A stretch of 35,855 bases of DNA, from positions 1 to 35,855 of the forward strand of contig CAVOMX010000021.1 of NCBI GenBank assembly GCA_963697165.1, in the 5' to 3' direction. The stretch is from Candidatus Bathyarchaeota archaeon (GTDB lineage Archaea; Thermoproteota; Bathyarchaeia; Bathyarchaeales; Bathyarchaeaceae). Numbering within the stretch: the first letter of the stretch is position 1; the number at the start of each line of letters is the position of its first letter. The notes under the pieces are model-generated. The model was not told where the DNA came from and did not search any database. It saw nothing but the letters and a program-made list of their open reading frames with translations. The position numbers and the translations under genes were made by a program. Shown piece by piece: positions 1 through 20,845 of this stretch.

Positions 1-164
1 AATTAATAAATAGAAACAGTATTCAAAATATAAGCCTTAACATACTGCCTACGCGCGCTAGGGTGTTTAGACATTAATTTATTGCTTGCGTTATCTTCTG
101 TTAGGAAGAAGCTTTAAGCATTAAGCAAGTTTTGATAAAAACACTTTTGTGTATGTTATAAAAG

Positions 165-230
165 GTAAGTCACAACGTAAGTAAGTTACAACATAAATGA
201 ATTTGACTGAACCTCTAGAAACGTTGTGAC
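165..230. repeat. Tandem 16-bp direct repeat plus 10-bp inverted copy
   Basis: GTAAGTCACAACGTAA (165-180) and GTAAGTTACAACATAA (181-196). GTCACAACGT (169-178) is the exact reverse complement of ACGTTGTGAC (221-230). Confidence 0.6.
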
Positions 231-319
231 AAAAAGTCTTGCCTATTTTTTTGTTTCAACTTGGCATTCGTAGACTCGAACTCCCTTTTCTCTGTGCAGT
301 TTTCATGTCCAACTTCAAT

Positions 320-478
320 TCATCTTAATCTGTGCTTCTTCGTTTCGCGTCTTCTCTTTTCATCTACTGCTTGACGTATCCATTCTGAAGGCTTACCAAC
401 AGTCCTCAAATATTTAAGCTGCTCCGCGGTTAGGCGCACTCCATAGTGGAGTTTCCGGTCACTCATGGATTCCACCAT
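320..478 (-). CDS. Small putative ribbon-helix-helix (CopG/Arc-like) DNA-binding protein, 52 aa
   Basis: Manual translation MVESMSDRKLHYGVRLTAEQLKYLRTVGKPSEWIRQAVDEKRRRETKKHRLR*. The beta-strand (HYGVRL), helix A and G-x-x-S-E-W-I-R-x-A-V helix B pattern fits RHH. Below the ORF-track cutoff. Confidence 0.55.
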   Translation of the reverse strand: MVESMSDRKLHYGVRLTAEQLKYLRTVGKPSEWIRQAVDEKRRRETKKHRLR

Positions 479-688
479 TCTAATCGATATTGAAAATAAA
501 GAAAAGCTTTATGAAATCAATATATTGACTTATAATACAGCCATTTCTTAACAGGAAATTGCCAGCTAAAGCCCTTCGAAGCTACAGGTTGATGCTGCGG
601 TTTTGCGTGTGAAGAAATATAAATAAGTGACGCAATGCTCAGAAAGCAACAAAATGCCCTTAAGAAATGTTTGGGAGGAAAACGGGCG

Positions 689-2032
689 ATGGAAAATGAC
701 TTCTTGAAATTAGCTCTCGGGTTAATTGAGTCCAGCGAAGACCATGAACGTTACCGGGGAGAAGATTGCATAAATCTGATTGCAAGCGAGGGACTCAAAT
801 CTCCGGCAGTTAGTGAAATGCTAAGCTTGTCACAGGACTTGGAATCCAGATACGCTGAAGGAGAAAATAACCTTGAGGGTCATGTTAAAGCACGGCACTA
901 TCAAGGTCAAAAATACATTACAAAAATCGAGAATTACGCAACAGATTTGATGAAAAACCTGTTCGGATGCACTTGGGCTGACGTTAGACTCGTTTCAGGT
1001 ACCCACGCAAATCTTGCCACCTTCAAAGGCATCTCTTTGGCAACAAAAAATAACCGGATGGTAGTCTTGCCCCTCAGCGCTGGGGCTCATATAACTCATG
1101 ACTACTCTGGACTAGCCGGCAAGGTCTTGGGGCTAGAAACCATCAATCATGCTTACAATATAGATGAATTGAACATTGACCCAGAAAAGTCTGCAACTAT
1201 AATCGACGCAGCTAGACCCGGCATAGTGACTTTCGGAGGCAGTGTCTTCCCATTTCCCCATCCAGTTAAAGAACTGGCAAATGTTGCTAAAGAAACGGGC
1301 GCCTATGTTGTTTATGATGCAGCTCATGTCTTGGGCTTGATTGCGGGTGGAGAGTTTCAGGATCCCTTCGGGGAGGGCGTGGATTTCATAACTGCGTCAA
1401 CTCACAAAACTTTTCCAGGACCTCAAGGTGGAGTTATCCTCGCAAATTGTGAAGATGAGCGGATGAAGAAGGCAATCAAGAAGGTGCAGCATGCGGTGTT
1501 CCCATTAAGCGCCTCGAACACTCATCTTGGTCGGCTTCCTGCCTTGGGCTTAGCCGCATTGGAACTGAAACTGTATGGTAAGGAGTTGGCTAAGCAGACA
1601 ATTAAGAATGCTCAGACCGCGGGCAAGTGCCTGTTCGAGAATGGGGTGAAGGTTTTGGGAAGAAAGAATGGGTTTACTTGTTCCCATCAGATCACTGTTG
1701 ACGTTAGGGAATATGGTGGCGGACAGAAGCTTGCGTTTAGTCTTGAGGATGCTCACATTATTTTGAACAAGAATCTTTTGCCATACGACAATCAGCATAA
1801 CCATGGTGACCCGTCGGGTCTCAGAATAGGTTTCCAAGACGTAACCCGGAGAGGCTTCAAAGAAAAAGACATAGAGTGCCTGTGTTCTTTGATGTTGGAT
1901 GTCGTGAAGGGCAAGAGGACCCCCACCGAAGTACGAAAGGATATCATCAAATTGAGGCAGAGCTTCAATGAAATTAAATACGGTTTCAAAAGCGTCAACG
2001 AAGCAAAAGAATACCTCATGAAATATGTTTAA
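689..2032 (+). CDS. glyA: Serine hydroxymethyltransferase (archaeal type)
   Basis: INLIASE, YAEG, YDAAHVLGLIAG, STHKTFPGPQGG (PLP Lys), NKNLLP, SGLRIG motifs. Start set at ATG 689 after GGAGG; the ORF track begins at 635. Confidence 0.95.
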   Translation: MENDFLKLALGLIESSEDHERYRGEDCINLIASEGLKSPAVSEMLSLSQDLESRYAEGENNLEGHVKARHYQGQKYITKIENYATDLMKNLFGCTWADVRLVSGTHANLATFKGISLATKNNRMVVLPLSAGAHITHDYSGLAGKVLGLETINHAYNIDELNIDPEKSATIIDAARPGIVTFGGSVFPFPHPVKELANVAKETGAYVVYDAAHVLGLIAGGEFQDPFGEGVDFITASTHKTFPGPQGGVILANCEDERMKKAIKKVQHAVFPLSASNTHLGRLPALGLAALELKLYGKELAKQTIKNAQTAGKCLFENGVKVLGRKNGFTCSHQITVDVREYGGGQKLAFSLEDAHIILNKNLLPYDNQHNHGDPSGLRIGFQDVTRRGFKEKDIECLCSLMLDVVKGKRTPTEVRKDIIKLRQSFNEIKYGFKSVNEAKEYLMKYV

Positions 2033-2095
2033 GCATTCAAGACGTATGGGCATAGGTGTACTTTGAAGTCGTCTTTTGTATCCATTTTTTCTCTA

Positions 2096-2112
2096 CGATA
2101 ATTTTTTATATA
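2096..2112 (+). promoter_or_regulatory. Putative archaeal BRE/TATA promoter of the aspartokinase-aromatic operon
   Basis: CGATAATTT followed by TTTATATA (2105-2112), implying a TSS near 2136. Confidence 0.55.
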
Positions 2113-2149
2113 AGAAGGGGGTTTTGTGTCAATCAAGGAAACTGGGTCT

Positions 2150-2221
2150 ATGAATAGCCACTTGATGACTTCGACAACTTCTTGGCACTTCTATAGCTTT
2201 GGCTATTTCTTTTATAATTAA
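2150..2221 (+). CDS. Putative leader peptide (uORF), 23 aa, aromatic-rich
   Basis: ATG 2150 to TAA 2221 gives MNSHLMTSTTSWHFYSFGYFFYN*. Eight of the last 12 residues are W/F/Y. It lies between the TATA box and the first gene of the aromatic operon. Confidence 0.6.
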   Translation: MNSHLMTSTTSWHFYSFGYFFYN

Positions 2222-2263
2222 GCCCAGCTAGCTGAAATTTAACGTCTTTAGTTTTCTGGGCTT
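2220..2263 (+). promoter_or_regulatory. RNA hairpin directly after the leader ORF stop
   Basis: AAGCCCAG (2220-2227) pairs with CTGGGCTT (2256-2263). Inner stem AGCTGAA (2230-2236) pairs with TTTAGTT (2247-2253) using GU pairs. The hairpin ends just before ATG 2265. Confidence 0.55.
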
Positions 2264-2264
2264 C

Positions 2265-3533
2265 ATGGATGGTTTAGTTGTTATGAAACAAAATAATGAA
2301 AAAAAACCTAAAAGAATCGTGGTTAAATTTGGGGGCTCTAGCCTCGCAGATAACGAACGGATATTGAGGGCAGTTACGGCAGTTGCTGAAGAAGCAAAGA
2401 AGGGTACACAAATTGTCGTGATTGTTTCAGCTATGGGAAAAACAACTGACACGCTTTTTAATGCAGCCAAAAACAGCTCTAATGGCAGGTTGCATAAGAA
2501 AGATTTAGATGAGATTCTGGCCATGGGGGAAAGAACCAGTATCAGAATTATCGCTGCAGCATTAAAGGCGCAGGGAGTGGATTCCCGTTACGTGGACCCA
2601 CACGATCCAGAATGGCCTATCCTAACAGACGACTCGTTTTCGGACGCCAACCCAATCTTGGATACATGCTACAAACGAGCTGAACAGAATGTGCTTCCCC
2701 TTGTTGAGGCTGGCGTTATTCCCGTGATTGCGGGTTTCGTGGGCAGAACCAAAGACAATCGAGTAACCACATTGGGGAGAGGCGGAAGTGATACAACTGC
2801 CTTCATATTAGCGAAGGCTTTAGAGGCGGATGAGCTTATCTTAGTCACTGATGCGGAGGGAATTATGTCCGCTGACCCAAAGATTATTGGTAGTCCAAAG
2901 CGGATTCCAGAAATTGACGTGAACACTTTGGTTGGATTGGCAGACTCTGGCACAAAATTCATTCACAGAAAGGCATTAAGATACAAGGATGCGTCAATAA
3001 AAGTTAGGGTAATCAAACACAGTCACGGCGATCTGAACGCGGAGGGCACTCTGATTGTTGGAGCGCTCTCAAACGACTTGAATGTTGAATTGACAAGTCC
3101 GTCTCCTGCTATGTTAATCACTGTTGTAGGCAAGGGCGTCTCCGAGCAGCCTCAAGTTATAAAAGAGCTGACTGAATCAGTGAAAAATCATGCTGAGCTG
3201 CTGGGTTTATCCTTGAACTACGACTCGTTGATACTCTATACTTCAGAGAACTCGGATTCGAATCTACTCCTCGAAAAAATTCATGAAATAATACTAGCCC
3301 ATCCGGAGACATTGGCTATGTCTGTTAGAAAGCAATTGGCTTTTCTTACAGTCAAGGGTGTTGGCTTAGAGAAGACTCCGGGTCTCACAGGAAGAATATC
3401 TGAGGCTCTGAGACTGAACTCCATCAACATCTTCGGCTTGATGACAATCACGTCAAGCATTCTTCTATTTGTAGAATGGAAGGAAAAAGAGAAAGTCCTA
3501 AACTTAGTTAGAGACGCATTAGAAGGTGACTAA
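2265..3533 (+). CDS. lysC: Aspartate kinase
   Basis: VVKFGGSSLA, VSAMGKTTD, TTLGRGGSDTTA, TDAEGIMSADPK motifs and C-terminal ACT-like region. Start is 2265 or 2283. Confidence 0.93.
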   Translation: MDGLVVMKQNNEKKPKRIVVKFGGSSLADNERILRAVTAVAEEAKKGTQIVVIVSAMGKTTDTLFNAAKNSSNGRLHKKDLDEILAMGERTSIRIIAAALKAQGVDSRYVDPHDPEWPILTDDSFSDANPILDTCYKRAEQNVLPLVEAGVIPVIAGFVGRTKDNRVTTLGRGGSDTTAFILAKALEADELILVTDAEGIMSADPKIIGSPKRIPEIDVNTLVGLADSGTKFIHRKALRYKDASIKVRVIKHSHGDLNAEGTLIVGALSNDLNVELTSPSPAMLITVVGKGVSEQPQVIKELTESVKNHAELLGLSLNYDSLILYTSENSDSNLLLEKIHEIILAHPETLAMSVRKQLAFLTVKGVGLEKTPGLTGRISEALRLNSINIFGLMTITSSILLFVEWKEKEKVLNLVRDALEGD

Positions 3534-3535
3534 AA

Positions 3536-4573
3536 ATGTTGAAAGCAGCTGTATTAGGAGCAACAGGCAACGTCGGACAAATCTTCGTCCAACTGCTAGA
3601 GGGGCACCCCTGGTTCGAAGTTTCAACGGTTGCAGCCTCAGAAAGAAGCACAGGAAGAACATACAATGAAGCGTCCAGATGGCGACAATCAACACCAGTT
3701 CCCGAAGCTGTCGCCCAAATGGAAGTTGTAGACATCGACCCACGAGCAGTTAAGGATGTTGACATTGTCTTCTCAGCGTTACCATCTGACGTAGCGGGAA
3801 ATGTAGAGGAAGCATTCGCCATGGCAGGATATGTTGTGGTTAGCAACGCCTCTGCCCATCGAATGGACACTGACGTTCCCATGCTGAACCCTGAAATAAA
3901 CTGCAGCCACGTCAGCCTCATAGAAGAACAGCGCAGAAAAAGAAAGTGGGACGGAGCAATCGTAACAAACCCCAACTGCAGCACAACCGTTCTAACATTG
4001 CCCCTAAAGCCAATCTATGACGAGTTTGGCATCAACAGCCTCATAGTATCTACGATGCAGGCAATCTCAGGCGCTGGATATCCAGGTGTTGCCTCCCTTG
4101 ACATAGTGGACAACGTTATTCCATATATCGGAGGAGAAGAGGCAAAGATGGAAACCGAAACACAGAAGATTTTGGGCACTGCCTCAAAACCTGCGGACTT
4201 TAAGGTTTCATCTAGTTGTCACAGAGTTGCAACGATTGATGGTCACATGGAAGCGGTATTCGTAGAGACGAAAAAGAAGGCGGAGCCTAATGCTGTAGCT
4301 GAGGCTATGGAAAACTTTGTTGGGGAACCTCAAAAGCTGAAGCTTCCGTCAGCCCCCGAAAAGCCAGTTATTGTTACGTGGGAGAATGATCGTCCGCAAA
4401 CTCGATTGGACAGGATGGAGGGCAATGGCATGAGCACTGTAGTTGGTAGAATCAGAAAGGATCCAGTGTTAGATGGGGTGAAATTTATTGCTCTGGGACA
4501 TAATACCATACGGGGAGCTGCTGGCTGTGGCATCCTTAACGCGGAATACTTGAAAATGAAAAAGTTCATCTAA
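3536..4573 (+). CDS. asd: Aspartate-semialdehyde dehydrogenase (archaeal/fungal type)
   Basis: LGATGNVG, NPNCST (catalytic Cys), QAISGAGYPG, GHNTIRGAAG. Confidence 0.96.
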   Translation: MLKAAVLGATGNVGQIFVQLLEGHPWFEVSTVAASERSTGRTYNEASRWRQSTPVPEAVAQMEVVDIDPRAVKDVDIVFSALPSDVAGNVEEAFAMAGYVVVSNASAHRMDTDVPMLNPEINCSHVSLIEEQRRKRKWDGAIVTNPNCSTTVLTLPLKPIYDEFGINSLIVSTMQAISGAGYPGVASLDIVDNVIPYIGGEEAKMETETQKILGTASKPADFKVSSSCHRVATIDGHMEAVFVETKKKAEPNAVAEAMENFVGEPQKLKLPSAPEKPVIVTWENDRPQTRLDRMEGNGMSTVVGRIRKDPVLDGVKFIALGHNTIRGAAGCGILNAEYLKMKKFI

Positions 4574-4588
4574 AGGAGATAGAAACTT

Positions 4589-5381
4589 TTGGAATCCGGT
4601 AAAAAAAGACGGTTAAGACGAATCTTCCGAAGCGACAACAGAACAGTAATTGTTCCCATGGACCACGGCGTAACACTTGGTCCAGTTAAGGGACTAGGGA
4701 ATATGCAGAGCATCATTTACAAGCTGTTGCTTGGGGGTGTTGACGCGGTTGTCATCAACAGGGGCATAGCAAAAAGTGTTGATGCTGGAAACGCAGGATT
4801 AATTGTTCACTTGTCGGGAATTTCTGTTCATTGTCCTGACCCAAACAATAAGGTGCAAATCTGCTCTGTGGATGATGCTGTCCGATTGGGGGCTGATGGT
4901 GTTTCAGTGCACATTAATGTGGGTGCTAAACAGGAAGCCCAGATGCTCTCGACGTTTGGTAAGGTAGCCTGTGAATGCGACGATTACGGCATGCCACTTC
5001 TGGCTATGATGTATCCTCGAGGACCAAACATAAAAGATTCACATGCAGTGGATTTGGTTGCTCACGCTGCTCGTTTAGGCGCAGAGTTAGGAGCAGACAT
5101 CGTCAAAACAAACTACACTGGCGATGTTGAATCATTCAAAGAGGTTATCAGCAGTTGCCATGTTCCAGTTATTATTGCTGGTGGACCAAAAATGGAGACA
5201 AGCAGTGATGTCCTTGCAGATGGTAAAGGATTCCATAACTGCTGGAGGGGCAGGTCTTTCCATAGGACGAAACGTGTTTCAGCACGAAGACCCAGCCAAG
5301 ATAGTCATGGCTCTCTCAGCTATTGTCCATTCTGAGGCGTCAGTCGCTGAAGCCCTGAAGATTCTTGGTGAATCCAAATGA
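4589..5381 (+). CDS. aroA': 2-amino-3,7-dideoxy-D-threo-hept-6-ulosonate (ADH) synthase, DhnA-type aldolase; frameshift near 5212
   Basis: [28 protein letters not shown]. The C-terminus ([14 protein letters not shown]) is in the next frame (ORF 5124..5381). Adjacent to DHQ synthase II. Confidence 0.88.
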
Positions 5382-6448
5382 AGGAACTTTGGCTCGAAAT
5401 AGACCATTCCCTTCCTGAAACCCCGAAAACTAAATTGCTAAAGTCTGCGGCTCAGACCTGCGATGCCGTGCTCGTTGATGTAAAGGACATAGAGAAAGCC
5501 AAAAATTCTGGAATTAAATCTGCCTCAACTTCTCCGGAGGCTGACATCACCGTTCTTTCTGTGTTTGACTCTGAGAAACTGAAGGCGTTGAAGGCTAAGG
5601 GCAGAATTGTCGCTGTGAAAATAATCATTGAAGGAAAACAGGATGAGGAGACTGCAATAGCCGCGGCTGAGCTTTCATGCGATTACGTTATTGTTGGCAC
5701 TCCAGACTGGAAAATTATTCCCTTAGAAAACCTCATCGCCAAGACCAGAGGAAAAACCAAGCTGCTTGCAGAAGTCTCCAGCACAAAAGAGGCGAAGGTT
5801 GCCTTGGAAACTTTGGAACTTGGATCAGACGGTGTGGTCCTGAAGACAGCTAGCCTCGAAGAACTCAAACAGACAGCAGAGTTTGCCAAGAAGGACGCTC
5901 TTGCGCTTGAGTTGGTTGCTGTTGAGGTTGTTGAGTTGAAGGAGATTGGAACAGGCGCCCGAGCCTGCATCGACACGTGTGACCTTATGAAGCCTGGAGA
6001 GGGTATTCTTTTGGGTTGCCAGTCTTCTGGGCTGTTTCTGGTTCAGGCTGAGGTTCATGAAAGCCCATACGTGGAAACCCGTCCCTTCCGTGTAAACGCT
6101 GGTCCTCTTTCGTTGTATGCTCTCACGTCCCCCGCTAGGACTAGATACTTGTCTGAGCTAAAGTCTGGGGAAGAGGTTCTTATTGTGGACCGGCAAGGAA
6201 ACGTCCGGTTAACTAATGTTGCCCGTGCTAAGATTGAGTGGCGACCAATGCTTCTCATCGAGGCAGAATACGGCGGCAAAACGTTGAAGTTGATTGCCCA
6301 GAACGCCGAAACAATACGGGTTGTGACTCCCGGAGGCTCCAAGGCAGTAACTGACCTAAAGAAGGGCGACAAGATTCTGGCTCGCGTGGAAGCGGGCGGC
6401 AGGCACTTCGGAACATTAGTGAAAGAAGAAGCAGTGATAGAGCGTTGA
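5378..6448 (+). CDS. aroB': 3-dehydroquinate synthase II
   Basis: [47 protein letters not shown]. Confidence 0.93.
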
Positions 6449-7128
6449 TCATAAAAATCTGCGTTGCAGTTCCTCCCAAGACAATTGATGAAGCCTTTGA
6501 GTTAATACGAAAAGCGGAGGCAGAGCACCCGGACCTCATTGAAGTAAGACTAGACAGCCTAAAAAACCATGACCAAATAGCAGATATTCCATCATGCAGC
6601 AAGACTCCCCTGATAGCTACAAACAAATCAACCGAAAAGCATGGCAATTTTTCTGAAAGCGAAACTGAACGCCAAAAAATTTTGGTCGATGCCGCGAGAA
6701 ACGGCTTCGAATACGTGGACGTAGACTTGGGCACACCCAACCAAACGAAGTTAATCCGTAATCTGCATGAAGCTGGAGCAAAAGTTATCGTTTCGTTTCA
6801 TGATTTTGAACAGACCCCTCCGTTGTCAAAACTGGTTAAGGTTCTCGATGAGGAAGTTGCTTTGGGTGCTGATGTCTGCAAGATCATAACCACAGCCAGA
6901 ACTGTAGAAGATAATCTGATTACATTAGATTTTGTTTCAGAGGCTTCCAAGAAAGCCAAGATAGTCTGCTTTGCCATGGGAGAATTAGGTAAGCACTCTA
7001 GGTTGGTGTCTCCTGTTTTTGGTGCTTTCTTCACTTTTGCATCTCTTGACGAAAAAAGAAAAACGGCAAAAGGACAATTAACCATACAAGAAATGAAAAG
7101 TGCATACGAGGCTCTGGGGCTAAAATAA
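6445..7128 (+). CDS. aroD: Type I 3-dehydroquinate dehydratase
   Basis: EVRLD, SFHDFEQTP, ADVCKI, FAMGELGKHSR, GQL. Confidence 0.92.
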   Translation: MIIKICVAVPPKTIDEAFELIRKAEAEHPDLIEVRLDSLKNHDQIADIPSCSKTPLIATNKSTEKHGNFSESETERQKILVDAARNGFEYVDVDLGTPNQTKLIRNLHEAGAKVIVSFHDFEQTPPLSKLVKVLDEEVALGADVCKIITTARTVEDNLITLDFVSEASKKAKIVCFAMGELGKHSRLVSPVFGAFFTFASLDEKRKTAKGQLTIQEMKSAYEALGLK

Positions 7129-7129
7129 G

Positions 7130-8000
7130 ATGGGAATCTCCGGAAAAACTAAGGTTTGTGCAATCATCGGCGACCCAGTAGAGCACTCCCTAAGTCCCAT
7201 AATACACAATGCTGCATTCAAAGAATTGGGGCTTAACCTAGTTTACGTGGCTTTCACAGTAACAACACGAGAATTGCAGACCGCAATTTTGGGCGCAAAA
7301 AGTTTAGGCCTTTGGGGATTAAACGTGACCATGCCCCACAAAAACGCTGTCATGAACTACCTAGATGAGGTGGACTCCACGGCAAAGTCTATCGGCGCAG
7401 TAAACACTGTACTCAATAACAACGGAAGGCTGATTGGATACAACACAGACGGAAACGGCACCATGATTGCCCTACAAGAAAACGGCGTGTACCTCGAAGG
7501 AAAAGAAGTTGGTTCTTATCGGAGCTGGAGGCACAGCAAAAGCCATAGCCTATCAGGCAGCCCAAGATGTAGAGGAGCTTGTTATCCTCAATAGAACTCC
7601 CGAGAAGGCAAAAAAATTAGCTGAAATGCTAAAGAAGAGTTTTGGCAAAAACGTGAAGGGCGCTGCTCTCTCGTCCGAAGTTCTGGAGGAGGAACTGGAA
7701 ACCACAGATATTCTGGTTAATGCCACATCCGTGGGCATGGATCCAGACGTTAACAGTAGCCCAGTTCCGTCGAGTTTGCTGAGGCGTGATTTGTGCGTAA
7801 TGGATATAGTCTACAATCCCCTAGAAACAAGGCTTGCAGCAGACGCAAAATCTGTTGGCGCCAAGGTTGTTTCGGGCATTGAAATGCTTATTTATCAGGG
7901 AGCCGTCGCCTTCGAAATCTGGACTAACTGCCTTGCTCCAGTTGAAGTGATGAGGAAGGCAGCATTGAACGAACTTGAAAAACAGGGTGTTCACTATTGA
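7130..8000 (+). CDS. aroE: Shikimate dehydrogenase; frameshift near 7500
   Basis: GDPVEHSLSP, NVTMPHK, GAVNT, GYNTDG in ORF 7130..7594. GAGG, VNATSVGM, DIVYNP in ORF 7467..8000. Extra A in GGAAAAGAAG. Confidence 0.92.
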
Positions 8001-8870
8001 CTAGAAAAGCTGAAGCGATATCTCACGGAGCGGCTACGATAATTAATGCGATAGCAACTGGCAATGGAGCCGCCATCGGAGTGGACCTTTGGACAAAAGC
8101 TGTCGTAGCCCTCACAGACGAAGCAGGACATGTGGATGTTACTATTCGTTCTGACTCTTCAGAGAATCCTGCTTTGGCACAAAAAACCGTTGAACGCATC
8201 CTCAAACACTTCGGTTTAGAACAGCAGTTTGGCGCCAAAATAGAAACCACATCAAACATTCCCGTAGCAAGGGGACTAAAGAGCAGCAGCGCAGCAGCGA
8301 ATGCCATAGCATTGGCGACAACAGCCGCCCTAGAACATAGCTTGGATGATGTTTCAGTGGTGAAGCTGGGCGTTGACGGTGCATTAGACGCTAAGGTTAC
8401 AATAACTGGAGCCTTCGACGATGCCTGTGCCTCATATTTTGGCGGAATCGTAATCACCGATAACATGGAACGAGCAATCATCAAGCGCTTCGAGCCAACT
8501 GAAGCACTTGCCGTTCTGTTTTATGTTCCAGCAGAAAAAACCTATACTATATGTTCGGATGTGAAGCGAATGAAGGGCATGGCCTCCGCCGTTAAGATAG
8601 CCTACAAAGAAGCCCTGAATGGTAACTACTGGGCAGCCCTAACCCTGAACGGTTTAATCTACTCTTCAGCACTAGGATACGATTCATCCCCCGCTGTAGA
8701 TGCTCTCATAACAGGAGCAGTAGCTGCTGGGTTGTCTGGAACTGGACCCGCTGTTTCCGCCATCGTTCCTGAAGACAAGATAGAACTTGTGAAAGGATGT
8801 TTGGCGTAAGCGTGAGGGAGAAATCTTGGATGCTCATATTAATCTTGAGAAAGCTAAGGTGATGGGCTAA
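7997..8870 (+). CDS. aroK: Archaeal (GHMP-family) shikimate kinase; probable frameshift near 8792
   Basis: GAATIINAIATG, GLKSSSAAA, TGAFDDACAS, GLSGTGP. Removing one A at GTGAAAGG extends the protein with DVWRKREGEILDAHINLEKAKVMG* to 8870, abutting aroA. Confidence 0.9.
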
Positions 8871-8873
8871 ACA

Positions 8874-10151
8874 ATGCATGTTACAGTCAAGAACACTGAT
8901 CATCTGGAGGGCGTAGTCTCGGCTCCTCCCTCAAAAGCTTACACTCACAGGATGCTAATAGCCGCATCATTGTCGAATGGAACCTCAAAAATCTTTGATC
9001 CACTCATTTCTGATGACACACAAGCGACCCTAGAGGCAGCAAAGGCATTTGGAGCCAAAACAGAAATACATGAAAAATACTGGACTATACATGGACAAGA
9101 AACACTCAAGACGCCTGACCATCCCATAGACTGCAGAGAGTCGGGTTCAACTCTTCGTTTCACGATTCCACTTTCAGCCCTTGCCTCTGGCTCTTCAACA
9201 TTTCTTTTTGGGGCATCATTTGAGCGAAGACCTGTAGCGCCACTTCTTGAGAGCCTCAAGGAACTAGGAGTCGAATCTACTGTTCAAAGAAACGGTTCAT
9301 CTGTTATTGTTCATGGAGGCGGAATCAGGGGAGGAAAAACTTCGATAAGGGGCGACATAAGTTCACAGTTCATTTCTGGACTACTTTTTGCTTGTCCAAA
9401 GGCAAAAGAAGACACAGAAATTGTGGTCACAACTAATCTGGAGTCTAAGGGCTACGTTGAAATGACACTTGAAGTTCTGGTTAAGCATGGACTCGAAGGA
9501 GCTGTAAACCCTAATCTTTCTCACATGTGGATTCCTGCAACTCAAAGCTATCGTCCATGCGATCATACTGTTCCGGGAGACTTTTCGTCTGCAGCCTTTC
9601 TATTGGCAGCTGCTGCGGTTACTTCATCGCGGGTAACAGTGAAGAATCTTGAGTATCTAACGGCTCAGGGCGACAAAGCAATATTGGGCATACTTGAGGA
9701 GATGGGTACATCAGTTAACATAGGAGATGATTCTGTGGAGGTTAAAGGCGGGCAACTTGTTGGGATTGATATTGACGCAAAGGATATTCCAGATTTGGTT
9801 CCTGTTTGCGCTGTTCTTGGCTGTTACGCTGAGGGGCGTTCGGAGATATATAATGCGAAGCGGCTTAGGTACAAAGAATCAGATAGGCTCGATTCGATAT
9901 GCACTGAATTGAAGAAGATGGGGGCGGATATTGTCGTGAACGAGGATGGATTAGCCATAAACGGTTCACCTGGTTTGAATGGGGTAACTATTGATCCCCA
10001 TAATGACCACAGGATCGCTATGTCCTGTGCCGTGGCTGCTCTTGGAGCCGTTGGCGAAACGAAGATTCAAAACGTTGAATGTATAAATAAGTCGTATCCG
10101 CAGTTCTTCAGTGATCTGCGTGTGTTAGGAGCTAATGTCGTTGGTATCTAA
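8874..10151 (+). CDS. aroA: EPSP synthase (3-phosphoshikimate 1-carboxyvinyltransferase)
   Basis: PPSKAYTHR, ESGSTLR, SSQFISGLL, LRYKESDR, DHRIAMS, KSYPQF. Confidence 0.96.
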   Translation: MHVTVKNTDHLEGVVSAPPSKAYTHRMLIAASLSNGTSKIFDPLISDDTQATLEAAKAFGAKTEIHEKYWTIHGQETLKTPDHPIDCRESGSTLRFTIPLSALASGSSTFLFGASFERRPVAPLLESLKELGVESTVQRNGSSVIVHGGGIRGGKTSIRGDISSQFISGLLFACPKAKEDTEIVVTTNLESKGYVEMTLEVLVKHGLEGAVNPNLSHMWIPATQSYRPCDHTVPGDFSSAAFLLAAAAVTSSRVTVKNLEYLTAQGDKAILGILEEMGTSVNIGDDSVEVKGGQLVGIDIDAKDIPDLVPVCAVLGCYAEGRSEIYNAKRLRYKESDRLDSICTELKKMGADIVVNEDGLAINGSPGLNGVTIDPHNDHRIAMSCAVAALGAVGETKIQNVECINKSYPQFFSDLRVLGANVVGI

Positions 10152-11226
10152 TTCGATAGGAAAAGAATTCGTTGTAACATGTTTCGGCGAAAGCCATGGC
10201 AGATGCGTTGGAGCAGTCATAGATGGGTGTCCAGCCGGTCTTCCCCTTGCAGAGGAGGATATCCAGAAGGAACTGGACAAACGGTTACCCAAAAAAGAGG
10301 AGATTGTTTCTGCCCGAAGAGAAGAAGACGCTGTTGAACTTCTCTCGGGAACTTATGAGGGCTTCACAACTGGTGCTCCAATCTGCGTTTTAGTGTGGAA
10401 CAAGGAGGTTATTTCTGACGATTACGATGCAATAAGGCATACTCCCAGACCCGGACACGCAGACTATCCCGCCAAGATCAAGTATTTAGGCTTCAATGAT
10501 CATCGCGGCGGAGGACGATTCTCGGGTAGAATCACAGTTGCTTTTGTTATGGCTGGTGCTATTGCCAAGAAGCTGCTACAACTCGCAGACATCCAAGTTC
10601 TGGCATACGCCACTGAGATTGGAGGCGTCAAAATGCTTGCTGTTCCATCCCTTGAGGATGTTCGGGAGAAGACTTACGAAAGCGCGGTAAGGTGTCCAGA
10701 TTCGAAGGTTGCTGTGAATATGGAGGAAACGATTCTGAAGGCGAAGAGTGAGGGTGACAGTGTGGGTGGAATTGTTGAGTGTGTAGCTTCTAACGTTTTG
10801 GCGGGGGTCGGTGAGCCTCTTTTTGATTCGTTGGATGCTGAGCTTGCGAAGATGCTTTTTGATATTCCAGCTGTTAAGGGTGTCGAGTTTGGTGTTGGAT
10901 TTGAGGCTGCTCGGTTGAAGGGTTCAGAGAATAATGATTCCTATGTGATGAGGGATGGAGAAATCAGGGCAGTAACCAATAATGCTGGTGGTGTTTTGGG
11001 TGGTTTATCGTCTGGGATGCCTATTGTGGTTAGGGTGGCTGTAAAGCCGACGCCTTCGATTTCGAAAGAGCAGAGGACTGTGGACATGTTGAATATGGCG
11101 GATACGACAGTTCAAGTGAAAGGCAGACATGATTCATGTATTGTGCCAAAGGCTGTTCCGGTTGTTGAGGCTTCTGTTGCTATTGTTTTGGTTGATCAGC
11201 TGCTTAGAGCAGGTTTGACTACCTAA
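10135..11226 (+). CDS. aroC: Chorismate synthase
   Basis: FGESHG, RPGHAD, GGGRFSGR, IPAVKGVEFG, GRHDSC. A possible extra base near 11218 would extend the C-terminus (LPKVLG...) to 11275. Confidence 0.96.
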   Translation: MSLVSNSIGKEFVVTCFGESHGRCVGAVIDGCPAGLPLAEEDIQKELDKRLPKKEEIVSARREEDAVELLSGTYEGFTTGAPICVLVWNKEVISDDYDAIRHTPRPGHADYPAKIKYLGFNDHRGGGRFSGRITVAFVMAGAIAKKLLQLADIQVLAYATEIGGVKMLAVPSLEDVREKTYESAVRCPDSKVAVNMEETILKAKSEGDSVGGIVECVASNVLAGVGEPLFDSLDAELAKMLFDIPAVKGVEFGVGFEAARLKGSENNDSYVMRDGEIRAVTNNAGGVLGGLSSGMPIVVRVAVKPTPSISKEQRTVDMLNMADTTVQVKGRHDSCIVPKAVPVVEASVAIVLVDQLLRAGLTT

Positions 11227-11237
11227 AGTGTTGGGAG

Positions 11238-11513
11238 TTGAGGCTGTTGGAGAATATAGTGACATTACGGAATAAGATTGATGCAATCGATGCAAAGATT
11301 GTACTTCTGTTGAAAGATCGGATGGAAATCTGTAAAAGTATTGGGGCTGTCAAAGTAAAAAATGGTTTAGCGGTTAAGGATCATCGGAGAGAAGATGCAG
11401 TTTATTTGCATGTCATGGCAAAGGCGCTGGAGTCAGGTCTTGATCCACAAAAAGTAGAAGCAATCTTCAAAGATATAATTGCTTTGGGCGTCTTTGTTCA
11501 AGGTGCCGAATGA
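11238..11513 (+). CDS. Chorismate mutase (AroQ, type II)
   Basis: LRNKIDAIDAKIVLLLKDR...IGAVK...DHRRE pattern and operon context. Confidence 0.88.
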   Translation: MRLLENIVTLRNKIDAIDAKIVLLLKDRMEICKSIGAVKVKNGLAVKDHRREDAVYLHVMAKALESGLDPQKVEAIFKDIIALGVFVQGAE

Positions 11514-11587
11514 GAAGATTTAAAGCGGTATTACACAATTCTTGATGAGAAAAAATAGTCGTTCTTTCTCTCTTGGAGTTGAGTAAG

Positions 11588-12660
11588 ATGCTATATGAAA
11601 TAAGCGAAAAAGCGATGCAACTTGAGAATCAGGGAAAAGAGGATTATCAAGTTTAATCTAGGTGACCCTGACCTGCCGACTCCGCCTGAAATAGTTGAGG
11701 CTGCATACGTGGCTATGAAGCAAGGAAAAACGAAGTATTCTTCTGCGGCTGGCGAGAAGGAGCTGCGTGAGGAATTGGCTAGAGATTCATGGTGTGTCTG
11801 TGGACAATGTTGTGGTGACCACTGGTTCAAAGTGGGCAATTTTTTCTTGATGTTTCTGTTTTGAAGAAGGCGAGAATGTTGTTGTTCCGTCTCCTCACTG
11901 GACAAGTTACGAGTTAGCCGCAAAGAAGGTTGGGGCTGAAATTCGGTTTTTGAAGAGCGACCTTGCGTCTGACTGGAAGGTTGACGCTGATCAGCTTGAG
12001 GCATTGATTGATGAAGATACGCGGATGATAATACTGAATAGCCCTAACAATCCGACAAGCAAGGTTATTGATGACAAAACTTTCGGTAAGATTGTTCAGG
12101 TAGCACAAAACAAGGGCGTTACTGTTTTGTCGGATGAGGTTTACTCGGACATCAGTTTCGTGAAGACTAAATCTATTCTAGATTTTGGGGAAGATAATAT
12201 TCTGGTGAGCGGGTTTTCTAAATCGTTTTTGATGACTGGATGGAGAATCGGATACGCTGTTGTTGAGAAGGAGCTGGCTAAGCGAATGATTAAGCTGAAC
12301 CAGATAACCACAACCTGTGTTCCAGCGTTTATCCAGTACGGCGCTTTGAAGGGTTTGGAGTCTAGGAAAAAGATTGCGGATGATATCAGGACCGAGTTTA
12401 AAGTTAGGGCAGATGTTGCTTACTCTGTTCTTTCGAAGTCAAAGATGAAGTTTTCTCGACCTGATGCCCCATTTTATCTATTTCCTAAGGTTGATGGCTT
12501 GGATTCTGAACGTTTCGCCTTGGATCTTCTGGACAAGGGAGTTGCTGTGGCTCCAGGAACCGCATTTGGAGATTACCGAGAATACTTTAGGATAGCCTTA
12601 ACTGTTGGCGAGCAAAAGATTAGAGAGGGCTTGAAGAAGCTCTGTGAGGCTCTACCTTGA
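11588..12660 (+). CDS. Class I/II PLP aminotransferase (aspartate/aromatic); several frameshifts at 11630-11870
   Basis: ATG 11588 MLYEISEKA..., FNLGDPD, VVVTTGSKWA, PSPHWTSY, LNSPNNPT, SDEVY, GFSKSFLMTGWRIGY distributed over changing frames. Confidence 0.85.
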
Positions 12661-13526
12661 GAGTAGCGGTTATTGGCGCGGGAAAGATGGGTCGATGGTT
12701 CACAAGATTCTTTAAGACTGAAGGATTTTCGGTAGTTGTTTCTAGCCGAACCAAAAGCAAAGCAGAGGCGTTAAAGGCTGAGTTTGGGGTTGAGGTAGCC
12801 CGTAACAACGTGGAGGCTCTTGATGGCTCTGATTGGATTCTGTTGTGCATGTCCTTGGATGGCCTAGAGCCTGTCCTAAAGGAGATTGGCTCTCAAGTGC
12901 GCCCCGATCAGGTTGTTATGGACATCGGTTCTATCAAGGAGATTCCCGTGAATCTGCTGCACCAACATGTGGAACATGGAGTTACATTGGGAACACATCC
13001 TGTGTTTGGTCCCGGCGCAAGAAGCCTTGAGGGACAAAACTTTGTTCTTACTCCAGTAGGCACTGAGGAGAAACGGTTTGCTGACGAGTTCATGGGCTGG
13101 CTGGAGAAACATGGAGCGAAGGTGTCTGTTTTGTCGCCTAGAAAGCATGATGAGTTGATGTCTATGGTTTTGGGTTTTCCTCATTTTGTGGGCTTGGTTG
13201 CCGGTGACACGCTGATGGATAATGCTAACTTTGTTGATGCGAAAGCGGTGGGTGGAGCCAGCTATAAGCTCTTGTTGACTTTGGCTGAGGCTGTATCTTC
13301 TGAGGAGCCGCATTTCTATTCGAATCTTCACATGAGCTTGCCTGAGATGGAAAAGATTGAGGGCTTATTCTTGGAGAAAGTAGAAGAGTGGCTCAAGCTG
13401 GTGAAAAGTAAAGATTGTTCAGGTTTCTCTGGTAAGATGGGACATGTTAAGAAGCGATTGCAGGAATTAGACCCTGAATATGAGCGGTATTATAGGCTTA
13501 TGTATCGGCTTTTGGATGATTTCTAG
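12657..13526 (+). CDS. tyrA: Prephenate/arogenate dehydrogenase
   Basis: IGAGKMG, DIGSIK, HPVFGP, HDELMS. Confidence 0.92.
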   Translation: MRVAVIGAGKMGRWFTRFFKTEGFSVVVSSRTKSKAEALKAEFGVEVARNNVEALDGSDWILLCMSLDGLEPVLKEIGSQVRPDQVVMDIGSIKEIPVNLLHQHVEHGVTLGTHPVFGPGARSLEGQNFVLTPVGTEEKRFADEFMGWLEKHGAKVSVLSPRKHDELMSMVLGFPHFVGLVAGDTLMDNANFVDAKAVGGASYKLLLTLAEAVSSEEPHFYSNLHMSLPEMEKIEGLFLEKVEEWLKLVKSKDCSGFSGKMGHVKKRLQELDPEYERYYRLMYRLLDDF

Positions 13527-14362
13527 AGTTTGATGTTTTGTTTTTTGGCTGCCTTGTAGGAGCCCAAAATTTTTATGAATATTGTTTTGTCTTTGATGCT
13601 TTCTAGTGCTTCTTGGCATTTTGTTTCGGTTCTGTGTCCCTCAAAGTCTAGGTAGAAGTGGTACTCCCATGGGGTCTGTTTGGTGGGTCTAGATTCTATC
13701 TTTGTTAGGTTTATGTTCCTGTCAGAAAATTCTTTGAGAACCTTATAGAGGGCTCCGGGGATCGATTTGGCTGCAAAAATTATCGAGGTTTTGTCTTCTC
13801 CAGAGTAGTGCGAATCCTGCTTGTCTATAACAAAGAATCTGGTAGAATTGTTTTTGATGTCCTCTATTTCTCTTTCTAGTATGGTCATGTCGTAGATTTG
13901 GGCTGCTCTTTCGCTGGCTATTGCTGCTGCGTCCATCATACTTTCTTCTTTAATCATCTTAACGCTGCCTGCAGTGTCGAAGGTAGAGATTGCCTTGAGT
14001 TTATGTTGTTCTAGAAATTTTCTGCATTGAGCTAGGGCTTGGGGGTGACTATAGACTGTTTCTATCGAGTCTATGCTGGTTCCTTTGTGGGCTATGAGAC
14101 AGTGGCTGATTCTGATGATTATTTCACCGCAAACTTTGAGGTCATATTCTAAAAACAGATCGTAGGTGCGGTTTACGCTACCCTCGATAGAGTTTTCAAT
14201 TGGAACAACCCCGTAGTCTACTTCTCCAGTTTTGACGCTTTTGAAGACGGCACCAAAATTTTTGCAGGGCTTCACAATTGCAGACTGACCAAAAAAACTG
14301 TAAACTGCACTCTCACTATAAGCACCAAGCTCACCCTGAAAAGCAACCCGCAACACAAACAC
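13523..14362 (-). CDS. pheA: Prephenate dehydratase with ACT domain
   Basis: FQGELGAYSE, PIENSIEGSV, SHPQALAQC, NSTRF, INLTKIESRP. Confidence 0.95.
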   Translation of the reverse strand: MFVLRVAFQGELGAYSESAVYSFFGQSAIVKPCKNFGAVFKSVKTGEVDYGVVPIENSIEGSVNRTYDLFLEYDLKVCGEIIIRISHCLIAHKGTSIDSIETVYSHPQALAQCRKFLEQHKLKAISTFDTAGSVKMIKEESMMDAAAIASERAAQIYDMTILEREIEDIKNNSTRFFVIDKQDSHYSGEDKTSIIFAAKSIPGALYKVLKEFSDRNINLTKIESRPTKQTPWEYHFYLDFEGHRTETKCQEALESIKDKTIFIKILGSYKAAKKQNIKL

Positions 14363-14737
14363 ACCGTTAATTATCTGGAAGCGAAGCCAAAATAAAACAC
14401 TTTACCACAAAAACCAGCATGAATACTAGCATTTTTTCTTTTTCAAAGATAGCCTTTTAATTTTAACTCCCCAAACACACCGAGACGCCTGCACGTGTAC
14501 ACGTGTACGTGTGTTTACACCCGCTCTCTTTCTCTATTGCCTATTCTCTTTCACCCGCCGCAAAGAAAATAAAAACCAACCCAAAAATAAGATGCACGCG
14601 CATCCGCAGCCACTAGTCTTATAAAAATTAAAACCACATTTGAACTATAGACCGATTAATAATTTTACGAAATTCGCAAACAATTCTGATTTTTTCCAAG
14701 CAAAGAACAAATACTTAATACAATTACCACATTCGTT

Positions 14738-15157
14738 ATGTATATGCAACAGGAATCCGAAACAGCCAACAAAACAAAAGCCAGCCAAAAACTTGTCCGT
14801 GCACTCTTATTTGTTGCAGGGACAATCTCTCTTTCCCTTGGAGCCATCGGAATAGTGTTGCCTGTTTTGCCAACCACGCCCTTCCTGTTGCTTGCTTTAG
14901 CCTGCTACTTCAGAAGTTCAGAGCGGATGACCCGCTGGATGCTAACTAACAGGTATTTTGGAAAATACATCCAAAGATACAAGGAAGGCAAAGGAATCCC
15001 CCTGAAAACAAAACTATTCGCAATAATATTTTTATGGACTGCAATAGTTTACTCCGCAATTTTCATTGTTCCAATTTGGATAGCACAAATAATCATGTTC
15101 GCAGTCGCAGCTGCAGTAACAATACACCTGACTAGACTGCCAACATATAATCACTAA
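14738..15157 (+). CDS. YbaN/DUF454 family membrane protein
   Basis: LGAIGIVLPVLPTTPFLLLALACYFRSS motif. Confidence 0.85.
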   Translation: MYMQQESETANKTKASQKLVRALLFVAGTISLSLGAIGIVLPVLPTTPFLLLALACYFRSSERMTRWMLTNRYFGKYIQRYKEGKGIPLKTKLFAIIFLWTAIVYSAIFIVPIWIAQIIMFAVAAAVTIHLTRLPTYNH

Positions 15158-15181
15158 ACATATGTGGAACGAAAAAGTTTG

Positions 15182-16318
15182 CTACTGATCGATTATTTGT
15201 TTTCTTGGTCTTTGCCTTTTTACAAAATCAGGCAACTTCGTTAACGATTTCTTTAACACTTCAATGCTATCCAAGTATTCTTGTATGTCAATGTGCTCAT
15301 TGGGTGTGTGATCTAGCCGCGAGTCTCCGGGTCCATACGTAACCACCGGAATCTTTAACACATTACCCAGAACATTCATGTCTCCTGTACCCGTCTTCCT
15401 TGAGAAAGAGGCATAATTTAGTGTTGTTTTTCTTATACCCCAAGCCAAAGCACGTACAATCACGGATCTGCGGTCAGCCTCAAATGCTTTGGCAACATCC
15501 ACCATCTCCACACTAACAGTAACCTTCGGGTTAGTCGACTTGTATCTGTCAATTTTCCGCTTTACCTCCTCAAACACCTGCTCGGGAGCAAGTTGAGGCG
15601 GAATCCGCAACTGAATAAGAATCTCACAATAAGACGGAATAAACGAAGCAGAACTGTTGCCACCCTTTATCCCAGTCAAACATGAAGTGATCGAATAGAA
15701 GCGGCTCTTCAGTTTCTCCTCCCGCATATGAAGCCTGTTAATCTGCCTCCAAAACTCCATTGCCTTCTCAATTGCATTTTCAAACAACCACGGAGCAGCA
15801 GAATGACCCGAAGGAGTCTCAACAGTAATCTTCACAGTCAAAATGCCCTTATAGCCAAAAACAACCTTCTCCAAGCCGCTTGGCTCACCAAAAATGGCGT
15901 AATCAGGCTGTATGCCTTCTTCGACAAAATGCTGTATGCCTTTTCCTGAGCCCTCCTCATCAACCACGCCAACAACAAGAATCTTACCCGGAAAGCCATC
16001 CTTAACAAACTTGGAAGCAGCAACAATCATTGCTGCTAAAGGGCCTTTCGCATCTACAGAGCCCCTACCATATAGTTGTCCATCCTCAACATGAACAGGA
16101 ATCTCTCCCTCAACAGTATCCATGTGCCCACACAGCAAAATAATAGGAGAGCCCTCACCAACCTCGCCTATAACGTTTCCAACTTTGTCCCTGTTAACAC
16201 GAAAACCAAGCTTCTTCATCTCATCAGCCAAGAACAGGGAAATCTCCTCTTCATTGCCCGAAGGACTGTAGATCTTTATCATACGCGTCAGCAAATCAAT
16301 CGCATAATCGTCGCTCAT
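15182..16318 (-). CDS. lysK: [LysW]-lysine/ornithine hydrolase (M20 family)
   Basis: YSPSGNE, GHMDTV, GRGSVDAKG, GEPSG, GTGDMN, YGPGDS..DHTPNEH. Start at ATG 16318 overlapping the lysJ stop. Confidence 0.9.
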   Translation of the reverse strand: MSDDYAIDLLTRMIKIYSPSGNEEEISLFLADEMKKLGFRVNRDKVGNVIGEVGEGSPIILLCGHMDTVEGEIPVHVEDGQLYGRGSVDAKGPLAAMIVAASKFVKDGFPGKILVVGVVDEEGSGKGIQHFVEEGIQPDYAIFGEPSGLEKVVFGYKGILTVKITVETPSGHSAAPWLFENAIEKAMEFWRQINRLHMREEKLKSRFYSITSCLTGIKGGNSSASFIPSYCEILIQLRIPPQLAPEQVFEEVKRKIDRYKSTNPKVTVSVEMVDVAKAFEADRRSVIVRALAWGIRKTTLNYASFSRKTGTGDMNVLGNVLKIPVVTYGPGDSRLDHTPNEHIDIQEYLDSIEVLKKSLTKLPDFVKRQRPRKQIIDQ

Positions 16319-18298: not shown

Positions 18299-18307
18299 CT
18301 TTTTTTA

Positions 18308-19360: not shown

Positions 19361-19371
19361 TGTTATCTCCT

Positions 19372-20553: not shown

Positions 20554-20659
20554 CTCTTTTCTTTCAACCTCGCTTCAAGTGTTCTATTTTTCTATAGATG
20601 TTTCTTGGTCTACTTTTTTGTTTCGCATGTAGCTTATAAAAAGAAATAATGAGGGGAAC

Positions 20660-20845
20660 CTATTCGCCCCAGTCTTCCCCTTCAATTCCAAGTTCTTTAA
20701 GTTCGACGCAGTCGCCCTTGTTTTCAGTCACTTCTAGTTCAAGACCGCAGCTCGGGCAGCTCAGGATCTCTCCTTTCATGACATCCTCTGGGACTTCGAT
20801 TTCCGCGTCACAGTCGGGACAATTGGCTTTCTTCACAACTTGCAC
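20660..20845 (-). CDS. lysW: Amino-group carrier protein LysW
   Basis: CPDC...CPSC zinc ribbon and C-terminal EDWGE. True start may be GTG at 20836, with GAGGTG upstream. Confidence 0.95.
   Translation of the reverse strand: MQVVKKANCPDCDAEIEVPEDVMKGEILSCPSCGLELEVTENKGDCVELKELGIEGEDWGE

Follow-up and report, generated by a model that had tools for sequence, protein, structure and literature searches.

Does an archaeon let its ribosomes read the supply of aromatic amino acids directly? This question is raised by the 35,855 nt of contig CAVOMX010000021.1 from a Candidatus Bathyarchaeota archaeon (the whole stretch that was analysed, called the window below), in which a short upstream open reading frame (uORF) crowded with Phe and Tyr codons lies between a promoter and the aspartate kinase (aspartokinase) gene that heads an operon for aromatic amino acid synthesis. 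In bacteria, leader-peptide attenuation is textbook biology, and it depends on the coupling of transcription to translation. A preliminary description of this locus had proposed a multivalent ribosome-sensed attenuator that responds to Trp, Phe, Tyr, Thr, and Met. The comparative analysis presented here bears out a conserved, translated-looking aromatic uORF with a hairpin adjacent to its stop codon and argues against the Trp and Thr/Met parts of that proposal. The element is probably a ribosome-sensed Phe/Tyr leader-peptide switch at the head of the aromatic operon, and that ribosomes sense Phe and Tyr here at all is quite likely.

The leader is compact. A TATA box, TTTATATA, lies at 2105-2112 and is followed by the uORF, in which 8 of the last 12 codons are aromatic (1 Trp, 4 Phe, and 3 Tyr), the last of these sitting one codon before the stop. 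A hairpin of 44 nt (2220-2263) opens inside the stop codon TAA and is followed by UUC. The leader thus lacks the combination of hairpin and U-tract that makes an intrinsic terminator. All of these elements are located where the preliminary description had placed them, as are the letters of the three alternative pairings it suggested: AATAGCCA at 2153-2160 with TGGCTATT at 2200-2207, CTGGG at 2142-2146 with CCCAG at 2223-2227, and GGCT at 2201-2204 with AGCC at 2221-2224. One assignment has to be changed. Position 2265, which had been taken as the start of the gene, is ATG in only 8 of 25 loci of the genus and TAG in one of them (L014); the genus alignments place the conserved aspartokinase start at ATG 2283-2285. 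By itself, the sequence of 2125-2300 folds in an only mildly unusual way (minimum free energy [MFE], z -1.95), and Rfam covariance models run against both strands of 2030-2330 matched nothing (best E-value, 2). Since the z value of the MFE is modest, support for the leader comes from comparison rather than from the single sequence.

Within the genus, the comparison includes 25 loci, the window and 24 other sampled species, whose aspartokinase orthologs are 77-88% identical. The uORF is intact in all 25, starting with ATG in 24 and with TTG in one, and is 23-24 codons long. The position of its stop is fixed, while the codon used there varies among TAA, TAG, and TGA. Both of the distinct gap runs found within the uORF in the alignment (A1) are 3 nt long; all 8 in the non-coding leader are 1-2 nt. 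Judging from this indel pattern, the retained start and stop, and the variable stop codon, the sequence behaves as coding, and the uORF is evidently translated. In 24 of the 25 peptides, the tail follows the pattern F-Y-S-F-[GSN]-Y-[FY]-[FY]-Y-x, and L025 has FFSYGYFFYYN instead. Third codon positions within the tail are nearly invariant across the genus despite balanced codon usage in the genome (TTT 55%/TTC 45%; TAT 51%/TAC 49%), indicating that RNA-level constraints overlap the coding constraint. The same invariance might instead be expected of a nascent arrest peptide that senses free aromatic amino acids, as TnaC does, or of a functional micro-protein whose hairpin serves RNA stability or processing, and in several families an S-F-G-Y core is indeed kept at both the nucleotide and the peptide level. 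However, overlapping RNA pairings also explain the third positions, only aromatic composition and position are kept beyond these few families, and there is no sign of a role in trans. An arrest peptide or micro-protein is therefore very improbable.

Beyond the genus, 162 of the 301 genomes sampled from the order (E<=1e-90) and 139 of the 301 sampled from the class (E<=1e-80) have an aspartokinase ortholog. From these, a class-wide set of 103 upstream regions was assembled, consisting of L001-L028 and 75 regions hand-picked to span families and genera. Each small ORF was scored by counting F, Y, and W over its final 14 codons, and a region was called positive when an ORF had at least 5 aromatics there and a stop 40-100 nt before the gene start. 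An aromatic-tailed uORF lies upstream of aspartokinase in 79 of the 103 regions (two of them added by hand, as detailed below), with 20 family labels sampled. The conserved uORF for which the preliminary description suggested looking in orthologous leaders is thus present both within the genus and in most of the regions sampled across the class. Every region has the leader in f1 (35/35), f9 (20/20), f6 (2/2), f14 (2/2), f16 (1/1), f19 (1/1), f27 (3/3), f30 (2/2), f31 (1/1), f32 (1/1), and f36 (2/2), as do some in f5 (3/4), f11 (5/7), and f17 (1/3). The f5 miss (L094) has only 139 nt of upstream sequence, and the seventh f11 region is the g37 locus, at 39% identity. No leader was found in the regions sampled from f26 (0/7), f34 (0/7), f35 (0/2), f33 (0/1), f12 (0/1), or f15 (0/1), the f15 case being borderline (MPRRIATTATMGSSFYTYY). 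Top scores in these leaderless families are only 2-5 aromatics, at scattered positions.

Over this range the peptides have diverged nearly wholly, with the aromatic tail as their constant part. Examples are FYSFGYFFYN, FYRYRYFFYR, FFSGYATYTTY, SFDYYFYYYYFT, NPYYYYYYYCFF, RFFDFFYYYFYFE, RFTYYFSGYWFTY, and ARFFDFFYYYFYFE. Tyr, Phe, and Trp make up 30%, 29%, and 3% of the final 12 residues in a set of 77 distinct leader peptides. The distance from the last aromatic residue to the stop is 0 residues in 25 of these peptides, 1 in 45, and 2 in 7, which accounts for all 77. When 1821 upstream regions of the source genome (G000) were used as a null, a small ORF with at least 7 aromatics over its final 14 codons and its end 40-100 nt before a gene was seen in 3 cases, 2 of which are the leader's own copies. 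The feature is real and far beyond chance. Trp, named as a sensed residue in the preliminary description, does not share in this constancy: it is present in 18 of the 25 genus peptides and makes up the 3% of the class-wide tails given above, and no Trp leader is found ahead of trpE and the trp operon in a relative (G005). The corresponding trp region of the source genome (contig C24, L034) is entirely fragmented; that of the relative is intact.

Codon choice in the leaders differs for the two main residues. Tyr is encoded by TAT 242 times and by TAC 67 times in the 79 leaders (160 and 61 outside the genus), compared with 51% and 49% in the genes of G000, while Phe codons are even, with 161 TTT and 149 TTC. 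The TAT excess may reflect selection for a wobble-read, slower Tyr codon or for A/U-rich RNA.

The residues that fill the tail correspond to what the operon makes. Aspartokinase is followed, in order, by asd, 2-amino-3,7-dideoxy-D-threo-hept-6-ulosonate (ADH) synthase, dehydroquinate (DHQ) synthase II, aroD, aroE, archaeal shikimate kinase, aroA, aroC, chorismate mutase, an aminotransferase, and prephenate dehydrogenase. All lie on the + strand, their junctions are short or overlap, and the 12 genes presumably share one transcript. The operon's output is chorismate and then the precursors of Tyr and Phe, and because chorismate mutase and prephenate dehydrogenase are encoded within it, Phe and Tyr are its products. 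The gene for prephenate dehydratase (pheA, 13523-14362) is convergent to the operon. In the archaeal 6-deoxy-5-ketofructose 1-phosphate (DKFP) route, ADH synthase uses aspartate semialdehyde as a substrate, and this enzyme is encoded two genes downstream, behind the aspartokinase/Asd pair. The feeding of ADH synthase by aspartate semialdehyde accounts for the presence of aspartokinase and Asd at the head of an aromatic operon and makes a Thr/Met rationale unnecessary.

Such a rationale, that the leader senses Thr and/or Met besides Phe and Tyr since aspartokinase and Asd also feed the synthesis of those amino acids, was part of the preliminary description and finds some echo in the peptides. 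Thr makes up 17.5% of the peptide body (13.6% outside the genus) versus 5.9% of the proteome, there are recurrent runs (for example, TTSTT, STTSTTTSS, PTTPTT, and ATTTTTQ), and Met often directly precedes the tail (SSMFY, SLMMFY, PTMFY). However, Ser, which is no product of the pathway, is equally enriched (19%; 13.3% outside the genus), many leaders have no Thr runs (f9, f14, f30), and the Thr and Met codons are too distant from the hairpin for direct occlusion. With aspartate semialdehyde already an aromatic precursor here, sensing of Thr or Met is not established and appears unlikely.

The second constant part of the leader is the hairpin. In each of the 79 leaders, hairpins with a 5' base between -3 and +8 of the stop codon end were searched for, and the most stable one was taken. 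These hairpins have a median stability of -18.8 kcal/mol and a median length of 44 nt. In 67 of 79, the distance of the 5' base from the end of the stop is -3 to 0 nt, which means that the stem usually takes in part of the stop codon. In 68 of 79, a Shine-Dalgarno (SD)-like motif starts 0-8 nt past the hairpin. When the same 88-nt stretches were shuffled by mononucleotides (2 per leader), the median was -9.2, and 11 of 158 were as stable as their own original. Pairing across the genus reaches 99.5% of cells in the outer stem AAGCCCAG/CTGGGCTT, where all one-sided changes are wobble-compatible, and 98% in the inner stem, which includes 3 GC-to-AU compensatory cells. Stems at the equivalent place differ in sequence from family to family, for example GCCCAGAAC/GTTCTGGGC, GGAGAAGCCGCG..., AAGCTTCGAAACC/GGTTTCGAAGCTT, and GAGCCGGTAGG.... 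That the stem sequences are replaced while their place is kept argues more strongly than any other finding that what counts is the structure and not the sequence.

In most hairpin loops, an A-run precedes a T-run (AAATTT, AAAATTTTT), as in the window at 2234-2249 and in L078-L086. These runs lengthen the stem with A-U pairs and bring a T4-T6 run to about 15-20 nt past the stop codon, where the oligo-T may act as an archaeal pause or termination signal.

A mechanism can be drawn from what these loci contain, which is the uORF with its coding signature and codon bias, the hairpin, their geometry, and the conservation of all of these; from it we infer the stalling itself, the direction of its effect, and the step at which it acts, whether translation initiation, transcript termination, or both. 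A ribosome would translate the 23-codon leader, which ends in 7 Phe/Tyr codons and 1 Trp codon among the last 12. With Phe-tRNA and Tyr-tRNA plentiful, it would terminate and depart, and the hairpin would close against the ribosome-binding site (RBS). This closed form, leaving 2-6 single-stranded nt before the SD, would be the low-expression state, in which little aspartokinase is made. With Phe-tRNA or Tyr-tRNA scarce, the ribosome would dwell on the last aromatic codons and cover the 5' arm, and the hairpin would stay open. Given the general size of a stalled-ribosome footprint, a ribosome on the last aromatic codons or on the stop would cover the first ~10 nt of the 5' arm and so preclude the hairpin. 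At that footprint size, the geometry places a stalled ribosome over the regulatory structure (77/77 tails; 67/79 hairpins). Once the hairpin is open, the binding site would gain single-stranded room and aspartokinase translation would increase. If the stall comes at an earlier aromatic codon, the 5' untranslated region (UTR), no longer held by the aromatic codons, may pair with the 5' arm instead. The increase in aspartokinase translation would pass down the operon by translational coupling and by transcript protection, since translating ribosomes protect a transcript from factor-dependent termination.

The 5' UTR pairings invoked for earlier stalls also bear on a transcription attenuator of the bacterial kind. 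There, the hairpin would be a terminator or would promote termination, by means of a U-run where present or of a termination factor; pairing between the 5' UTR and the 5' arm, freed by the stall, would be the antiterminator; and the decision would be made once, by the first ribosome behind the polymerase. Class-wide, the pairings were assessed as duplex energies against mononucleotide shuffles, with the 5' UTR against the aspartokinase coding sequence as control. The start region pairs with the aromatic codons at p<=0.05 in 27% of 79 leaders (median z -0.95), and the 5' UTR pairs with the hairpin 5' arm in 38% of 78 leaders, or 25% outside the genus (median z -1.2); the control reaches 9%. Pairings on the 5' UTR side with the codons and with the 5' arm are thus about three- to four-fold over control and far from universal, and their median z values are weak. 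Constrained folds of this leader, which speak for both readings, proceed stepwise: when the RNA ends with the ORF, its 5' UTR is paired to Phe codons; the 5' UTR takes the 5' arm once that is made or when a footprint covers codons 12-17; and the local hairpin forms in the full leader. A T-run of at least 4 beside the 3' end of the hairpin in 17 of 79 leaders, for example CTCTTTTTTGGGGG, makes a terminator/antiterminator switch likely in some lineages. However, neither this genus nor 55 of the 79 leaders has a T-run of at least 3 there, and archaeal intrinsic termination depends on oligo-T. Nor are bacterial-type terminators enriched in positions 1-20000 of the window (15 found versus 20 expected), although this count says little by itself, and the tight, conserved spacing between hairpin and SD has no role in a pure terminator. 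Taken together, these points make a bacterial-type attenuator rather unlikely.

Within the genus, none of the competing pairings of the preliminary description clearly exceeds controls. CTGGG/CCCAG, with 95.2% of its cells paired and 1 compensatory change, counts for an antiterminator: in L006, the one C-to-U change of the 5' arm has its G-to-A counterpart in the 5' UTR and not in the 3' arm. For AATAGCCA/TGGCTATT, 90.5% of cells are paired and 2 are compensatory, but one pair is mismatched in 10 of 25 loci. GGCT/AGCC is paired in 90%, a score equalled by 169 of 500 shuffles. Two other pairings were considered and rejected. RNAalifold and the MFE fold had suggested that the 5' UTR pairs with the aspartokinase RBS; this pairing has p<=0.05 in 9% of leaders, which equals the control. 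Sequestration of the SD by the hairpin 3' arm has p<=0.05 in 5%, no better than shuffles, and was dropped as a general feature, although the genus consensus can form an 11-bp GU-rich pairing of this type (L003, -8.4 kcal/mol, p 0.045).

Several points weigh against the Phe/Tyr-sensing switch as set out above. The SD lies outside the hairpin, and since its pairing with the 3' arm is no better than in shuffles, the textbook form of translational attenuation, in which the RBS is sequestered, is not seen here. That a hairpin 2-6 nt upstream of an SD lowers initiation is known from bacterial rather than archaeal work. Direct cover of the 5' arm would come only from stalls at the last 3-4 codons, while the aromatic codons span about 12, and the helper pairing of the 5' UTR with the 5' arm is modest (the 38%, or 25% outside the genus, against 9% above). 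The rule for calling a region positive was set after the data had been seen, the sampled regions were hand-picked, and related loci are not independent; 77 of the 103 regions pass this rule, and L014 and L026, each 1 nt outside the distance window, were added by hand to give 79. Contigs from four of six candidate public metatranscriptome runs cover only parts of 2617-3900, within aspartokinase and asd, and nothing over the leader. Finally, f26 (0/7) and f34 (0/7) have the same operon without an aromatic-run leader.

What these lineages have instead is a second kind of leader. In f26, f34, f17, and f35, a different conserved mini-ORF precedes the same aspartokinase-asd-aro operon, exemplified by MGDxLFGDGVY... 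(f26), ..GYIFGGHIYGGHYW.. and MGGHLYWH.. (f34), and ..VFRGxxFY.. (f17 and f35). The loci of this second class are L105-L113, L126, L128-L130, L134-L136, L138, and L139. By eye, their leaders consist of tandem units, each with an SD-like GGTGA or GGGGG, a short spacer, and one TTC, TAY, or TGG codon. The aspartokinase frame is open for at least 62 codons at the end of the region in 12 of 14 f26 and f34 regions, and for at least 60 codons in 6 of the 79 regions with an aromatic-run leader; the upstream open frame may give aspartokinase a long N-terminal extension or let ribosomes enter its frame by frameshifting. Put together, the two kinds of leader suggest a bolder proposal, which is offered tentatively and at odds short of even: an archaeal attenuator class of its own, widespread in Bathyarchaeia and independent of an intrinsic terminator, in which a hairpin held open by a hungry ribosome would license translation and, by coupling, transcription of a 12-gene operon and in which the second-class leader may shift ribosomes into the aspartokinase frame.

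The Phe/Tyr leader can be compared with known systems. Enterobacteria use leader-peptide transcription attenuators at pheL-pheA, trpL, hisL, and thrL, and the Phe codons of pheL run almost to its stop. Like these, the bathyarchaeal leader is a short, translated-looking ORF rich in codons for the pathway product, situated between the promoter and the first gene and followed by a stable hairpin. Unlike them, it is archaeal, and it has a single strong hairpin that begins inside the stop codon and adjoins the SD of the next gene. It lacks a U-tract in this genus, its candidate competing strand lies 5' of the ORF and not 3', and it would sense Phe and Tyr at the head of a 12-gene operon that begins with aspartokinase. 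Another parallel is found in the polycysteine small ORFs (sORFs) of mycobacteria, at which pausing at end-product codons reportedly alters the mRNA structure and raises translation of the 3' gene (10.1101/834739). Pausing at end-product codons and operon-level control without a terminator are likewise proposed here. By that account, the mycobacterial sORFs are leaderless and bacterial and the structure sequesters the RBS, whereas the present leader has a short 5' UTR, is archaeal, and has its SD outside the hairpin, with sequestration tested and not found.

The preliminary description had also called such a leader barely described in archaea. A full-text literature search, whose coverage leaves subscription journals outside, agrees with this statement: the work that it listed was bacterial only, and no precedent in Archaea was found. 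In the retrieved portions of PMC2965389 and PMC4833913, the word 'archaea' is confined to the reference lists, and PMC13158618, in its retrieved portion, takes up attenuation in an introduction on the regulation of ilv operons, with Corynebacterium as the sole leader-peptide reference. If the Phe/Tyr switch is correct, direct sensing of tRNA charging by the ribosome also evolved, or survived, in Archaea, in a globally abundant uncultured class. The leader would then provide a natural handle on archaeal transcription-translation coupling and polarity and a compact amino-acid-responsive part for archaeal genetics. Its one-hairpin geometry, set beside the four-segment design of bacteria, would test the minimum RNA structure that such a switch needs. 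The position of aspartokinase and Asd at the head of an aromatic operon is explained as well.

The features of the leader and operon are collected in the table.

Table. Position of leader and operon features in the window
Feature	Position	Strand	Basis or remark
Promoter: TACGATAA block (resembling a B recognition element), then TATA box TTTTATATAA	2094..2113	+	nearly invariant in 25/25 genus loci (MAFFT)
Short 5' UTR block AAGGAAACTGGG	2135..2146	+	conserved in genus alignment
Leader uORF, 23 codons, peptide MNSHLMTSTTSWHFYSFGYFFYN, then stop	2150..2221	+	ATG 2150; stop TAA 2219-2221
Aromatic tail, codons 12-23 (W H F Y S F G Y F F Y N), presumed sensing codons	2183..2218	+	
Hairpin AAGCCCAG...CTGGGCTT, outer stem and ~4 bp inner stem	2220..2263	+	-18.0 kcal/mol
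Aspartokinase SD GGATGG (GGAGG in most relatives)	2267..2272	+	3 nt past hairpin; genus alignments
Aspartate kinase, first gene of the operon	2283..3533	+	NCBIfam NF005159, E 4.6e-117
Remaining operon genes, asd through prephenate dehydrogenase	3536..13526	+	NCBIfam and Pfam matches

Other families have a differing TATA-like box at the position equivalent to that of the promoter listed, for example CCGAAACGCTTTTAT, about 40 nt upstream of the uORF ATG. From the usual distance between TATA box and transcription start, the latter would lie near 2135-2140, ~15 nt upstream of the uORF. Positions A2, G3, G4, A5, and G12 of the 5' UTR block are invariant in the genus alignment (A1). The AGGA of the block is, by its sequence, the probable SD of the uORF, and its CTGGG is the strand able to pair with the hairpin 5' arm.

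Upstream of the leader, a serine hydroxymethyltransferase (SHMT) gene, named from NCBIfam and Pfam, occupies 635-2032. SHMT also lies upstream of aspartokinase in 23 of the 24 other species of the genus, and the locus of L008 ends 181 nt before the gene. The estimated distance from SHMT to aspartokinase is 217-241 nt in 22 species and 98 nt in L022, where the SHMT match is partial. A second copy of the leader and aspartokinase, 98% identical, lies on contig C8 of the source genome (~2742-4150, - strand), and no further copy is found there. The uORF of this copy is identical, and the few leader differences fall in or just after the hairpin, where a C-to-T change gives G-U and a T-to-C change gives G-C. 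It is either a co-binned strain variant or a recent duplication. A scan of GTDB genomes for the leader pattern found 26 loci, in Bathyarchaeia or Candidatus Bathyarchaeum metagenome-assembled genomes (MAGs) except for one Thermoproteota single-amplified genome (SAG) and one MAG titled Nanoarchaeota. The latter (L062; JBBSWN010000004.1, a 7.4 kb contig) matches the Bathyarchaeum leader pattern exactly, and this contig is probably mis-binned.

Leaders of this type were sought ahead of other amino acid genes as well. The paralogous aspartokinase gene adjacent to dapB has no such uORF upstream, the his cluster of G000 has no His leader, and within the window none precedes pheA, the lysine genes, or the homocitrate synthase gene. 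Other amino-acid-rich uORFs in G000, sought genome-wide, were mostly noise. A His-rich candidate (C14) and a Trp-rich candidate (C12) were rejected, being followed by unrelated or frameshifted genes.

Downstream of the operon, lysine is apparently made by the alpha-aminoadipate route, as the genes at 15182-25624 encode a RimK-like ligase, an amino-acid kinase, a semialdehyde dehydrogenase, an aminotransferase, an M20 peptidase, homocitrate synthase, both homoaconitase subunits, and a dehydrogenase of the isocitrate/isopropylmalate type. A small Cys-rich ORF at ~20664-20837 (-) resembles LysW. With lysine made by this route, the operon's aspartokinase is unnecessary for its synthesis. Frame changes split several genes of the window (7130-8000, 4589-5381, and 11513-12660): aroE is in two pieces (7130-7594 and 7467-8000), ADH synthase is broken off at profile position 217 of 267, and the aminotransferase match starts only at profile position 118. 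These look like assembly indel errors or decay. The leader is unaffected, its uORF being identical in the second copy and conserved in the 24 other species.

A palindromic box, TACGAAATTCG(TA), occurs at 14666-14678 and 20941-20953, in both cases within a divergent promoter region, one between pheA and a DUF454 gene and the other between lysW and a gene for an Lrp-family regulator. With up to 1 mismatch, the box has 5 matches versus 1.85 expected, a number equalled in 5 of 100 shuffles. It is a candidate operator for the AsnC/Lrp regulator encoded at 21005-21523, and a half-site similar to it is present in the leader's own promoter, in the TACGATAA block.

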